From Planctomycetota bacterium (GTDB taxonomy: Bacteria > Planctomycetota > UBA8742 > JACQVU01 > JANLHZ01): a DNA stretch of 64,000 nt. The stretch spans positions 3,555-67,554 of the forward strand of contig JANLHZ010000268.1 in assembly GCA_024653775.1 (NCBI GenBank). Direction: 5' to 3'. Each line of letters begins with the position of its first letter. Positions within the stretch are counted from its first letter, which is position 1. This document shows positions 16,912 through 45,920 of this stretch, piece after piece. Made by a program: the position numbers and the translations under genes. Under the pieces are notes generated by a model that saw only the letters and a program-made list of their open reading frames with translations, had not been told where the DNA came from and ran no database searches.

Positions 16912-17015
16912 TTTCCATTCGTCGCACGGGGGAGGGAATTCGCGACAGAAAGCACTCGCTCGCTCTCTTCGAGCCACGAAAGCACCTCTTCGTCCGTCGA
17001 TTTCCGCGAGCCGAG
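16912..17015 (-). pseudogene. 104-bp duplicated copy of the 3' end of the radical-SAM/GT2 gene (1 mismatch vs 18708-18811)
   Basis: Direct sequence comparison. Encodes ...SWLEESERVLSVANSLPRATNG with an altered tail and has no start codon. Confidence 0.85.
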
Positions 17016-17086
17016 GAAAACCAGATTTTGTTAACCTATGTTGAAATACATTCTAGGCATTCATAAATTCAACCCGGGAGGCGGGT

Positions 17087-17908
17087 TTGAGCGCGTGGCA
17101 ACCATTAAAATATATAAGGTATGAAGGTTGCGTCGAGTCCAGCACGGGCGTTGCCATCATCTTGACCGACGCTGGCAAAGCGTACCTGAAGCCCCTCGGA
17201 AACAATGAAGGTCCACACGCGCTTGCCAGAGAGTTCGTCGGAACGTCGCTTGCGCATTGGTTCGGACTTAAGACCCTTGACTTCTCGATAATCCAGATTG
17301 CAGCGGGTTATTGCGCGGAAATCGAGCTTGGAAATAGAAAGGTCGCGGAACCGGGTTCTGCTTTTGTTACTCGGGCTACTAATGGGCTCCAGTGGGAGGG
17401 CTATAAGGATGAACTTGAAGCCCTCGACAACCCCGAGGACATTTCTCGGCTCGTTGTTTTCGACTCCTGGATTCGAAATTATGATAGGTACTCTCCAGAC
17501 AAGAACAGAAAACCGAACTACGGGAACGTGTTCCTTAGCAAGGAGAACACAGAGACCGGGAAATTGATCCTGCTTGCCATCGACCATACCCACTGTTTCA
17601 TGCAGGGGGGTGAAATGAACAAGGAGATCGCCCATATTGACGCTTACCGGGATGATAACGTTTATGGACTTTTTCCAGAATTTGCTCCGTATATGCGGCG
17701 CGATGTTGTGCTCGAATCGCTTAACAAATTGTCTGAAGTTGATAAGGCTATGGCGGATAGCATAATCGAAAAAATACCTCAGGATTGGGAAGTGAGCGCC
17801 GAAGTACGAGGAGCCTGGGGAAATTTTGTCCGGGATCGCGCGCATTATCTAACCGGGACGTTGATAAAGCGTTTAGAGGCTAATCTGGGTCCAAGGCTCT
17901 TTTTTTGA
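17087..17908 (+). CDS. HipA-like small Ser/Thr kinase-fold protein
   Basis: VFDSWIRNYDRY...N resembles the HipA catalytic loop (F-D-x-x-I-x-N-x-D-R-H-x-x-N). IDHTHCF could be the Mg-binding Asp motif. Low-GC cassette. Confidence 0.55.
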   Translation: MSAWQPLKYIRYEGCVESSTGVAIILTDAGKAYLKPLGNNEGPHALAREFVGTSLAHWFGLKTLDFSIIQIAAGYCAEIELGNRKVAEPGSAFVTRATNGLQWEGYKDELEALDNPEDISRLVVFDSWIRNYDRYSPDKNRKPNYGNVFLSKENTETGKLILLAIDHTHCFMQGGEMNKEIAHIDAYRDDNVYGLFPEFAPYMRRDVVLESLNKLSEVDKAMADSIIEKIPQDWEVSAEVRGAWGNFVRDRAHYLTGTLIKRLEANLGPRLFF

Positions 17909-17932
17909 TATACTATAGCGAGAGAGGAAACA

Positions 17933-18703
17933 ATGGCTGACACAAACGGTTACTACTCGCTCATTCAGTTCTGCCCCGACCGAGCGAGAGCGGAAACAAT
18001 AAATGTTGGAGTGGCTCTATTCTGTCCCGAGCAAGCGTTTCTTGATTCAAAGTTTTGCGGAAGTAACAAGAAAATCAAAAACGTCTTTGGTTTCGAAGGT
18101 TACGATATTTCGCGCATCAATGAGACAAAAAAAAATGTGCAGTTGAGGATCAAGAAAGAAGCCGCATACATAAAAAACAAATCGGATTTCGCGAGATTCG
18201 CGGGATCGCTAGGCAATGAATTACTGATGACAGCGCCCCGTCATCTGCTTACCGAAAATCCCGAAATAGAATTGGGAAGCCTTTTCAATGAACTTGTAGG
18301 CGGCAAGCCGAAAAAGCCGCATGCACCGCCTGCTTCTCCGGGACTGGATGAGTGCTTTCAGGAGCTTTCAGCGCAGCACCGCGCGAAGCTGCGCCATCCT
18401 GTGGTAGTGCCCAAATTAGAAATAACGATCGAGGTTCCTTATGCGTATAAAAATGGAAAGTGGAATTATGTGAAACCGCAGAAATTCCAGCGCAGTGACC
18501 CGGCGATGCGGCTAGCTGTCGAAGGAGACCTTCTCCGAAAGTATGCAGACAACGCAAATCTTATCGTTATCCCGAGCTTCGAAGACTCGCAAATCAAAAG
18601 TAGCGTGCTTTACCTTTTTAAGGAATACAATGTTGAAACCGTTCTCGAAGACGAGATCGACGATTTCATCGCTCGCGTGAAGAAAGAAGCTCACGCGTCC
18701 TAA
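17933..18703 (+). CDS. DUF3037-like protein, conserved partner of HipA-like kinases
   Basis: N-terminal YYSLIQFCPDRARAETINVGVALF resembles the DUF3037 N-terminus as I recall it. Tightly linked, same strand and same low GC as the upstream kinase-like gene. Confidence 0.5.
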   Translation: MADTNGYYSLIQFCPDRARAETINVGVALFCPEQAFLDSKFCGSNKKIKNVFGFEGYDISRINETKKNVQLRIKKEAAYIKNKSDFARFAGSLGNELLMTAPRHLLTENPEIELGSLFNELVGGKPKKPHAPPASPGLDECFQELSAQHRAKLRHPVVVPKLEITIEVPYAYKNGKWNYVKPQKFQRSDPAMRLAVEGDLLRKYADNANLIVIPSFEDSQIKSSVLYLFKEYNVETVLEDEIDDFIARVKKEAHAS

Positions 18704-45188: not shown

Positions 45189-45247
45189 GAATCACGAATT
45201 GCGTGAAACACCTTCCAGGCGCATGTATTCGGTGGTAGAATACTGTT

Positions 45248-45457
45248 ATGTTAAACGAAATTCGTATCGATAAAACCTCGTTCTCTGTCACGACAATCGA
45301 AGACGCGGACAAGGAGCCAAACTTCTGGATGAGTAAATCTCCCGAGGATCGATTCGCGGCTCTTGAACTCATGCGTCAGATAAATTATCCGGGTTATGAT
45401 CCAGTTACCGCGCGAGTTCAAAGAGTTCTTGAAGTTGTTGAACTCGAATGGCGTTAA
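45248..45457 (+). CDS. small hypothetical protein overlapping the downstream nucleotidyltransferase gene by 62 nt
   Basis: 69-aa ORF in lower-GC DNA. May be a partner gene or the 5' part of a frameshifted gene. Confidence 0.35.
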   Translation: MLNEIRIDKTSFSVTTIEDADKEPNFWMSKSPEDRFAALELMRQINYPGYDPVTARVQRVLEVVELEWR

Positions 45458-45845
45458 ATACGTCGTTGTTGGAGGATACGCCGTGAATTACCACGGCTAT
45501 GCTCGTTCGACAGCGGACATGGATATCCATGTGGAAATGAGCGAGGAGAATTCGCAAAAACTCGTTAGAGCGCTTGTAGAGTTCGGATTCGACGTGCCGG
45601 AGTTAAAGGAAGAACTGTTTCAGGTTCCGCATAAACTGATCAGGTTTGGAATCCCCCCGATGAGAATCGAAATTCTGACCACAATCTCCGGCGTGACATT
45701 TGACGAGTGCTACGCAGGAAGCGTAACGGTTTTGATTGAAGATGTGGAGGTCAACTTCATATCACGCGCCCTTCTGCTCAAGAACAAACGCGCGGCATCC
45801 AGAAACAGAGACCTCGACGATATAGAGAAACTGCGCGATCCCTGA
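45396..45845 (+). CDS. minimal nucleotidyltransferase-fold protein (MNT/AbiEii-like superfamily)
   Basis: VKYVVVGGYAVNYHGYARSTADMDIHVEM has the G[GS]...D.D NTase-fold motif. Confidence 0.6.
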   Translation: MIQLPREFKEFLKLLNSNGVKYVVVGGYAVNYHGYARSTADMDIHVEMSEENSQKLVRALVEFGFDVPELKEELFQVPHKLIRFGIPPMRIEILTTISGVTFDECYAGSVTVLIEDVEVNFISRALLLKNKRAASRNRDLDDIEKLRDP

Positions 45846-45863
45846 CGCGAAATTTCCAAAGTC

Positions 45864-45920
45864 GCCCTCGCGGACTCGAGTGCCAGAGACAAACTCATCG
45901 ACGAGAGGCCGAAGAAATAA
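45864..45920 (+). pseudogene. second short acs 3'-end remnant
   Basis: Encodes ALADSSARDKLIDERPKK then a stop. Compare acs C-terminus [16 protein letters not shown]. Confidence 0.7.

Follow-up and report, generated by a model that had tools for sequence, protein, structure and literature searches.

Toxin-antitoxin and candidate defence cassettes between duplicated ends of housekeeping genes: insertions possibly made by homologous recombination

Chromosomal toxin-antitoxin modules, like many small defence systems, have a patchy distribution and clearly move horizontally, and most have no transposase, integrase or phage nearby. By what route do they move between genomes? The question is raised by a 64-kb stretch of a metagenome-assembled Planctomycetota genome (GenBank assembly GCA_024653775.1, contig JANLHZ010000268.1; the whole stretch is called the window here), in which four small toxin-antitoxin-like or candidate defence cassettes, all within 30 kb, bear a comparable scar: direct repeats copied from the end of a housekeeping gene. 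We propose, with a probability that we put at about one half, that such cassettes are insertions with long target duplication (ILTDs) of minimal toxin-antitoxin or defence operons, made by Campbell-type homologous recombination of the host and kept in place by addiction.

The four repeat sets had been described in an earlier note made from the sequence alone. We ran self-comparison, Pfam, PADLOC and Rfam on the sequence and open reading frames (ORFs) of the window. Self-alignment found exactly the pairs that the note had listed, with borders within a few bases, and Pfam agreed with it on the enclosed ORFs and the host genes. Also as described there, the host gene is intact, the distal copy is a fragment and the junctions lie at stop codons. 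In our analysis, the stop codons of the DUF3037, 74-aa, DUF5615 and radical SAM/glycosyltransferase genes are at or near the repeat edges. Coordinates of all features are collected in Table 1.

The gene for a fusion of a radical SAM domain and a GT2 glycosyltransferase (rSAM/GT2) carries insertions at both its 3′ and 5′ ends. At the 3′ end, the two copies of a 104-nt repeat are 99% identical (pair 1; E = 9e-50). This repeat ends four codons short of the native stop: the displaced copy retains the native terminus (...NGNGAH-stop), and the intact gene now ends ...NGK-stop, with its final codon and stop outside the repeat. Cassette 1, between the copies, encodes HipA_2 and DUF3037 proteins that match the PADLOC candidate defence system PDC-M66 A/B. 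The GC content at third codon positions (GC3) of this cassette is 0.51 to 0.54, and the stop of its DUF3037 gene abuts that of rSAM/GT2. At the 5′ end, 20979-21112 matched 21937-22070 (pair 2; 134 nt, 97.8% identity, E = 1e-63). This match can be extended to 145 nt at 94% and is followed by about 70 nt more of upstream homology that is diverged with indels and includes a 13-nt exact match. The stop of the DUF5615 gene in cassette 2 lies 14 nt within the repeat. Beyond the displaced 5′ fragment, the upstream region is contiguous with a pilM-like gene. The copy that now drives rSAM/GT2 is strongly diverged from this region and is therefore probably of foreign-allele origin. One of the indels between the two upstream copies is a 55-nt double-hairpin element, present in one copy only.

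At the acetyl-CoA synthetase gene, acs, 33842-33974 and 34611-34743 share 133 nt at 97% identity (pair 3). The repeat spans the stop codon, which is TAA in the intact gene and TGA in the displaced fragment, and the fragment lies 34 nt from the stop of a convergent secretin gene. Cassette 3 has no promoter region of its own. The stop of its 74-aa gene overlaps the last base of the repeat, and on its other side a third, decayed copy of the acs end has its stop 3 nt ahead of the toxin start. Three generations of remnants are visible at acs.

The double-hairpin element (about 55 nt, TGTGGCACGGACGTC...GCGCGTG) has two copies, at 34553-34606 on the minus strand and at 22085-22140 on the plus strand, with folding z scores of -3.5 to -4.5. 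A T-run comes after the copy next to acs, and the second copy separates the pilM-like gene from the displaced rSAM/GT2 5′ fragment. They are the only two exact matches to a 14-mer of the element in the window, and both are at cassette loci. The element looks terminator-like or like a repetitive extragenic palindromic (REP) sequence.

Cassette 4 lies between two orphan fragments of an acs 3′ end. The end of the resident acs (34618-34780) matched 45016-45178 in inverted orientation, at 85% over 163 nt, and 45132-45178 matched 45865-45911 at 79%. The orphan fragment differs from the resident gene at 24 positions, 16 of them third codon positions. Like the earlier note, we take these remnants to come from another acs allele. 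The upstream fragment ends ...ERPGSD-stop in place of the native ...ERPKK-stop. Its start lies only about 17 nt beyond the stop codon of a transglutaminase-like gene (44303-44998); here, too, the junction hugs a stop, but that of a gene other than acs. Directly past the second orphan fragment, 45922-45946 forms a 25-nt inverted match (96%) with 48211-48235, near the 3′ end of a native gene (47040-48287); the two inverted copies together bracket the AbiJ-like gene and this native gene.

Table 1. Features of the four cassette loci (positions are those of the window)
Feature	Position	Strand	Basis
Displaced rSAM/GT2 3′ fragment, repeat copy 1; runs on to 16899	16912..17015	-	self-comparison
Cassette 1: HipA_2 kinase-like (17087-17908) and DUF3037 (17933-18703)	17016..18707	+	Pfam
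Host gene: B12-binding radical SAM and GT2 glycosyltransferase fusion, 802 aa, intact	18704..21112	-	Pfam
Repeat copy 2, within intact rSAM/GT2	18708..18811	-	self-comparison
Repeat copy at rSAM/GT2 5′ end: first 134 nt of coding sequence and 11 nt upstream	20979..21123	-	self-comparison
Upstream region now driving rSAM/GT2	21124..21331		homologous to 22071-22215, ~75% identity with indels
Cassette 2: DUF433 antitoxin-like (21332-21598) and DUF5615/PIN-like toxin (21599-21952)	21332..21952	+	Pfam
Displaced rSAM/GT2 5′ fragment, start codon 22068-22070	21937..22081	-	self-comparison
Displaced acs 3′ fragment, last 44 codons and TGA	33838..33974	-	self-comparison
Cassette 3: DUF4258 toxin-like (34198-34490, 97 aa) and 74-aa partner (33974-34198)	33974..34490	-	Pfam
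Third, decayed acs-end copy, AAPNARDKLLEERPKK then stop	34494..34549	-	34494-34546 81% identical to resident end
Double-hairpin, terminator-like element directly past acs stop	34553..34606	-	fold
Repeat copy inside intact acs, last 44 codons and TAA	34607..34743	-	self-comparison
Acetyl-CoA synthetase gene acs, intact, 674 aa	34609..36633	-	Pfam
Orphan acs 3′ fragment, other allele, open frame	45015..45190	+	85% identical to resident acs
Cassette 4: 69-aa ORF (45248-45457) and DUF6036/DUF2204-like nucleotidyltransferase (45396-45845)	45248..45845	+	Pfam
Second orphan acs-end fragment, ALADSSARDKLIDERPKK then stop; native-type terminus ...ERPKK-stop	45864..45920	+	self-comparison
AbiJ-like gene, PADLOC PDC-S32, same low-GC islet, without bracketing repeats	46145..47026	+	Pfam, PADLOC

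The cargo of these loci is foreign. Native genes of the window have a GC3 of 0.75 to 0.80, and the cassette ORFs one of 0.45 to 0.55, as do about 14 small islets in all. The cassette inserts are 0.5 to 1.7 kb each. A GC3 scan along acs and rSAM/GT2 detected no foreign tract at the repeat-bearing ends, and pairs 1 to 3 are native in composition. Their breakpoints are sharp. Within the window, the repeats are confined to these loci and are pieces of single-copy genes: only 4 of the roughly 14 low-GC islets have them, and none were found at the other 10 or so, where weaker repeats were also sought. At 104 to 145 nt, they are, as the earlier note had pointed out, far longer than the target duplications of transposons. 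We found no inverted repeats at the cassette ends. A DNA transposon or a miniature inverted-repeat transposable element (MITE) was rejected on account of these ends and of the long, variable duplications. The view that no recombinase is encoded locally also held: essentially all sizeable ORFs across the 64 kb had no Pfam match to an integrase, transposase or reverse transcriptase. The window ORFs tested had no Pfam match to intI, and Rfam matched no family in the window. Exact-protein look-ups with the acs and rSAM/GT2 proteins of the window returned no other contig, and the closest other rSAM/GT2 homologue is 48% identical. The databases hold no close relative of this lineage.

The DUF4258 toxin has hundreds of homologues at 60 to 68% identity across phyla. 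We scanned GTDB species representatives for the DUF4258 cassette, which gave 80 loci, 66 of them usable. A cassette was scored as bracketed when repeats of at least 80 nt and at least 83% identity lay no more than 4 kb apart; shifted intervals at the same loci served as controls. Bracketing repeats were found at 7/66 loci and in 1/331 control intervals (Fisher p = 1.8e-5), counts that mix gene-end repeats with a few interspersed repeats. In a 7.66-Mb single-contig Acidobacteriota chromosome (L004/L008), a DUF4258 cassette lies between an intact glnA and a 130-aa C-terminal fragment of glnA; the repeats of about 410 bp comprise the 3′ end and terminator of the gene and are about 95% identical. 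Elsewhere, DUF4258 cassettes are surrounded by duplicated 3′ ends of an Aminotran_1_2 gene (L011, 146 nt), a URO-D-like gene (L029, 118 nt) and an Aminotran_5 gene (L076, 268 nt). In all of these clean cases (L008, L011, L029 and L076), the repeats are 3′ ends of native genes with high GC3. A further genome has, on the far side of the cassette, a 45-nt copy, now decayed, of the end of a His_biosynth gene. The DUF4258 family occurs at no fewer than six different gene ends (acs, glnA, two aminotransferases, a URO-D-like gene and others), with repeats ranging from 39 to about 410 nt. We detected no tRNA gene as the source of a repeat in five related loci, and no shared end motifs or hairpins among the six homologous inserts compared, which have promoter-like boxes of their own. 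That one family occupies many targets, with such variable repeats and no common end motif, speaks against both a site-specific recombinase and a transposase.

The nucleotidyltransferase family of cassette 4 was assessed at loci taken from JGI metagenomes. Cassettes were bracketed at 7/46 loci, compared to 6/154 controls (p = 0.012). Examples at gene termini include L124 and L130, with the 3′ ends of hrpB and of an Aminotran_5 gene, respectively, and L152, with the 5′ region of a DUF6807 gene. We also searched 160 loci for homologues of cassettes 3 and 4 in a "previous host" state, beside acs or with acs remnants. There were none; the search returned only unrelated AMP-binding genes and one non-adjacent acs. 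There were no relatives of the DUF4258 family in 2.9 million viral contigs.

Two repeats were set aside as examples. That of L047 is an interspersed palindromic non-coding element that is MITE- or REP-like, and that of L121 is a multi-copy repeat that looks like an interspersed non-coding element. On the 2.8-kb contig of L047, the palindromic element of about 115 to 127 nt has three to four copies, at 403-529, 1325-1437 and 2686-2811 and also at 57-111. These separate a DUF4258 toxin-antitoxin pair from a SUKH/SMI1-family gene in an array-like arrangement, to which the multi-copy repeat of L121 is similar. A different arrangement is seen in a Phycisphaerales lineage (L165-L174, contexts of toxin P0159, and L001). 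There, the DUF4258 pair heads a string of modules (DUF5677, Unstab_antitox, PhdYeFM plus PIN) between a pectate-lyase-like gene and pgi, with slight differences in gene content among samples. No bracketing repeats were detectable at this toxin-antitoxin islet.

An empty site was found in Gemmatimonadota, where the contexts of toxin P0217 differ among samples. In L175 and L177, a TetR gene is followed directly by a HEAT-repeat gene. In L176, L178 and L179, the two genes are separated by an extra 2,900 bp that encodes HTH-DUF433 and PIN_10 proteins (the cassette-2 type) and an M48 peptidase. A 48-bp segment, TTCCTCCAAGGCGTACGCAAGACGCCCTGAGCG[A/C]CGCTTGCTTTATCT, which spans the final nine codons of TetR, its stop codon and a further 19 nt, occurs as a single copy in L175 (empty) and on both sides of the insert in L176 (filled). 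Of the two copies in L176, the right one matches the empty site exactly; TetR itself is the same protein in L175 and L176. We found no remnant of the target region within the 2.9-kb insert of L176. Comparison of L175 with L176 thus shows directly that a long target duplication accompanied an insertion at a gene 3′ end.

We then compared the two copies of each repeat. Across seven pairs, the 66 mismatches fall at codon positions 1, 2 and 3 in numbers of 12, 6 and 48, respectively (chi-square p = 6.5e-11), and the bias towards third positions holds (p = 0.002) against an expected third-position share of 0.55. All nine mismatches in L011 are at third positions and silent. The frame is open in every displaced fragment. 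In L008, L011 and L029, the mismatches are symmetric in GC-to-AT direction, and mismatches are clustered in tracts. This distribution is unlike the neutral decay of a pseudogene. The repeat of L076 is a mosaic: one tract of 163 nt is 100% identical, and the tract of about 105 nt that adjoins it is about 57% identical but still in frame. The GC3 of the repeat is 1.00 in the gene-attached copy and 0.77 in the insert-adjacent copy. In the window, cassettes 2, 3 and 4 each adjoin a remnant that is homologous to the resident sequence but diverged from it (21124-21331; 34494-34549; 45015-45190 together with 45864-45920). Together, the allele-like divergence, the mosaics and the diverged remnants indicate that homologous recombination acts at the cassette junctions and that the cassettes bring along parts of orthologous genes of other lineages.

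Insertion by host recombination would proceed as follows. The incoming fragment would consist of a cassette and the adjacent gene terminus of its previous host, in the form of a circle or an equivalent linear "ends-in" molecule. It would pair with the orthologous gene terminus of the recipient and be integrated by a single Campbell-type crossover, which would double the homologous segment and yield, in order, the gene (intact or nearly so), the cassette and a displaced terminal fragment. Only a fragment containing the extreme 5′ or 3′ end of a gene would leave a working gene behind, and junctions would for this reason cluster within a few codons of the start or stop. Those found are at -5, -4, -3, -2, 0, +5 and +72 nt relative to stop codons, with one case at a 5′ end. 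An insert between direct repeats would normally loop out, as a circle of the cassette and one repeat. Addictive cargo (toxin-antitoxin, restriction-modification or abortive-infection-like) would penalise that loss; loop-out would be counter-selected, and such cargo is therefore what would remain. Wherever a genome has a similar gene end, the circle could be integrated anew, and older gene-end remnants would be left behind. The C termini of acs, glnA and aminotransferase proteins are conserved. The circular or ends-in intermediate, the dependence on RecA and the stabilisation by addiction are steps that we infer.

Several points weigh against this proposal. The four loci of the window have no known empty site, and only about 10 to 25% of homologous cassette loci show bracketing repeats. 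Cassette 4 is not beside an acs gene, which requires a lost acs paralogue or a non-homologous step. A simple crossover of diverged alleles does not predict the adjoining tracts of 100% and 57% identity in L076, for which gap repair or gene conversion is needed. The third-position bias and the mosaics could also be explained by recombination of the intact gene with other alleles after the insertion. Pairs 1 to 3, which are 97 to 99% identical and native in composition, fit a fresh duplication in situ equally well, and the clean 48-bp duplication without a carried remnant is neutral between the two models. In such a homology-free duplication, nicks or breaks 50 to 400 bp apart, or a switch of replication template, would be followed by end joining and fill-in, so that the second copy is made from the recipient, and the intact gene would undergo allelic recombination later. 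This is the original, mechanism-agnostic idea of ILTD, and a link to DNA breakage has been suggested by Furuta et al. (PMC2853133). The sharp breakpoints, the near-identity and native composition of pairs 1 to 3, the 163-nt tract at 100% identity in L076, and the empty and filled sites with a right copy equal to the empty site and no remnant are all in its favour. It does not, however, predict the foreign-allele remnants that lie against the cassettes (21124-21331, the third acs copy, the orphan acs fragments and the divergent segment of L076), and it needs an extra recombination step for the all-synonymous mismatches of L011 and their symmetric GC/AT direction. Moreover, we know of no enzyme that makes staggered cuts of such variable length. 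We consider a duplication in situ, the main rival, rather improbable.

It is unlikely that a locus consisting of gene end, cassette and fragment arose once in a relative, by whatever mechanism, and then spread as is known from recombination hotspots, with the flanking core genes as the sites of double-crossover allelic replacement. Mosaics and allele-like differences do show that homologous recombination occurs at such sites, and the same cassettes are found in the same context across many samples of one species, but this merely shifts the question of origin. One family has repeats from at least six genes in different phyla, so the duplication step must have happened many times; the acs fragments of cassette 4 lie away from acs; and L175 and L176 come close to being sites that differ only by the insert and its duplication, with identical flanks. 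The earlier note had offered two mechanisms, exchange through homology arms and an integrase that regenerates the 3′ end of its target. The former is favoured by the allele-like third-position mismatches, the mosaics and the other-allele remnants. The latter would take the form of non-autonomous elements that carry a replacement gene end and depend on a tyrosine or serine recombinase supplied in trans from another part of the genome. Integrases often target the 3′ ends of tRNA genes and of some protein genes and leave direct repeats (PMC2853133), and our scan for recombinases covered the 64-kb window, in which none was found. Against an integrase stand the many unrelated targets of a single family (at least six gene ends), the variable repeat lengths (48 to about 410 bp), the cassettes without common end motifs and the case at a 5′ end. 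In three cases, furthermore, the last two to five codons were replaced by the insert; with ends such as ...NGK-stop at locus 1 and ...ERPGSD-stop at locus 4, the target end was not regenerated as it would be by an integrase-borne att site. We regard this mechanism as very unlikely. That the repeats are assembly artefacts, or ancient static duplications unrelated to cassette mobility, is highly improbable, even though the window comes from a metagenome-assembled genome. The repeats are non-identical, have no fixed length and do not correspond to a k-mer size. Many independent assemblies, as well as a 7.66-Mb single-contig chromosome, show this architecture too, and bracketing repeats are strongly enriched over controls. 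Static duplication, which the earlier note had named as an outcome that would speak against its pattern, is contradicted by the presence/absence polymorphism seen directly in L175 and L176, though not at the window loci.

If insertion by host recombination were general, toxin-antitoxin and defence operons would be widespread enzyme-free mobile elements. A housekeeping-gene terminus would serve as a portable homology tag, host RecA would integrate the cassettes across lineages, addiction would oppose loop-out, and, with re-excision as circles, successive rounds would leave integron-like strings of remnants, as at acs. If true, this would answer by what route chromosomal modules without the hallmarks of mobile elements pass from one genome to another. 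This broader picture is tentative, and we think that it may well not hold.

Other low-GC islets of the window, with no bracketing repeats, also carry candidate defence genes. The islet at 6628-8973 contains HEC-01A (6863-8095, E = 1e-189) adjoining a Phd/YefM-like ORF, that at 48317-49806 an AbiL/AriA-like ATPase (48317-49327) with a 160-aa partner, and that at 58299-59591 a PDC-S01 system (AAA_14 and DUF4143). Near-perfect AT-rich palindromes of 28 to 51 nt lie in islet spacers (3108-3144, 15717-15767, 54621-54649 and 59658-59685) and may be bidirectional terminators. A different AT-rich motif, AATTAATAATTAACAATTAATAATTAA, recurs at the borders of native genes in this GC-rich genome (24327-24358, 24701-24722, 37616-37650, 60266-60297 and 60342-60374). 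Inverted copies of it bound a small islet at 24319-24717 with a 76-aa ORF, and a second inverted pair, 45 nt apart, is at 60266-60374; the motif could be a promoter or terminator signal or represent MITE-like ends. A direct repeat at a glyoxalase-family gene (52329-52745), formed by 52331-52447 and 52770-52886 with 74 to 78% identity and a spacing of 439 nt, is probably a tandem paralogue or domain duplication and not a cassette scar.

Which known systems do these loci resemble? In Campbell-type single-crossover "ends-in" integration, as in insertion-duplication mutagenesis with suicide plasmids, a cloned homologous segment becomes a direct repeat that flanks the insert. The product topology is identical to that described here, with one intact gene copy if the gene end is included and with loop-out through the repeats. 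The differences are that the present process would be natural and involves no vector, and that the cassettes are 0.5 to 3 kb, with homologies down to 48 to 145 bp. Islands and satellites at tRNA and tmRNA genes likewise have direct repeats that stem from a target-gene 3′ end, and several partial copies build up there by tandem accretion. Integrative elements of that type need a site-specific recombinase and a fixed att core, whereas neither is seen here. A site-specific integrative element was rejected for want of a recombinase in the window and of a fixed target for the DUF4258 family, and an integron gene cassette was rejected because the six homologous inserts have no common terminal structure or motif and Pfam scans gave no intI.

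In Rhs, contact-dependent inhibition (CDI) and type VI secretion system (T6SS) loci, C-terminal displacement generates orphan arrays, with homology-facilitated illegitimate recombination (Kirchberger et al. 2017, PMC5361080). As at the present loci, a conserved homology anchor receives incoming toxin/immunity DNA and the old 3′ end is pushed downstream, and the remnant arrays recall the three acs-end copies. There, however, the repeat is the conserved core of the toxin's own gene, in which a functional domain is exchanged for the new tip, whereas here it is the end of an unrelated housekeeping gene (acs or rSAM/GT2) that is still functionally intact. We rejected a displacement array of this kind since the repeated segments are unrelated to the cargo. 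In Microcystis aeruginosa, a ParE/ParD-like module lies between identical 152-bp direct repeats, 14 bp past the stop of MaOC1 (Klemencic et al. 2021, PMC7935541). It resembles our cassettes in that the toxin-antitoxin pair closely follows a gene, is flanked by repeats of about 150 bp in direct orientation and lacks a mobility gene. Its repeats differ in being intergenic, with an inverted repeat, and may be an interspersed element such as those of L047 and L121; the report proposes no gene-end duplication or mechanism (PMC7935541). This anecdote is the only case of such an architecture with toxin-antitoxin cargo that we found. The literature searched has no account of toxin-antitoxin or defence cassettes that are regularly set between duplicated gene termini.

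The earlier note recognised no described system of this kind. One exists: ILTD has been described for restriction-modification systems (Furuta, Abe and Kobayashi 2010, NAR, PMC2853133; earlier by Nobusato et al. 2000, Gene 259:99, as cited in PMC2853133). In those cases, the repeats are 30 to about 420 bp, mobility genes are absent, some duplications overlap gene 3′ ends, and most hosts are naturally competent species (PMC2853133). The mechanism was left unresolved there, and a virus-like cycle of insertion, amplification via the repeats and release was proposed (PMC2853133). A 2013 review treats ILTD for restriction-modification systems only (PMC3874152). The likeness to the present cassettes is close: both are small selfish units with addictive cargo and long, variable direct duplications, and both lack a transposase, an integrase and terminal inverted repeats. 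The survey of Furuta et al. defined ILTD by direct repeats of >30 bp around an insert of <20 kb without mobility genes, and the window has repeats of 104, 134-145 and 133-137 nt at 94 to 99% identity around such inserts of 0.5 to 1.7 kb. It also asked that the repeat be single in an otherwise collinear genome with an empty site, as is seen for L175 against L176, and that it be no interspersed multi-copy element; within the window, the repeats lie at the cassette loci only. The presence of restriction and modification genes was a further criterion of that survey, not of the mechanism, and the cargo here is instead toxin-antitoxin-like or candidate defence.

The work therefore carries ILTD beyond restriction-modification, the cargo to which it had been linked until now, and adds toxin-antitoxin and defence operons, with a survey in which the scar is shared by two further cassette families in several phyla and with one direct empty site. 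Genomes can be screened for this scar to detect defence cassettes of recent acquisition, and annotators should be aware that a short "pseudogene" piece of a housekeeping gene may be the trace of an insertion. Compared with the restriction-modification cases, the toxin-antitoxin and candidate defence operons offer no DNA-cleaving activity of the cargo that could be invoked, the host range comprises Planctomycetota, Acidobacteriota, Gemmatimonadota and others, and the junctions are tight at gene termini, including one 5′ end. The repeats, moreover, have a synonymous-biased, allele-like divergence, with mosaics and carried remnants that point to homologous recombination. The architecture is the same as that of ILTD; the cargo class, the host phyla and the sequence evidence on mechanism are new.

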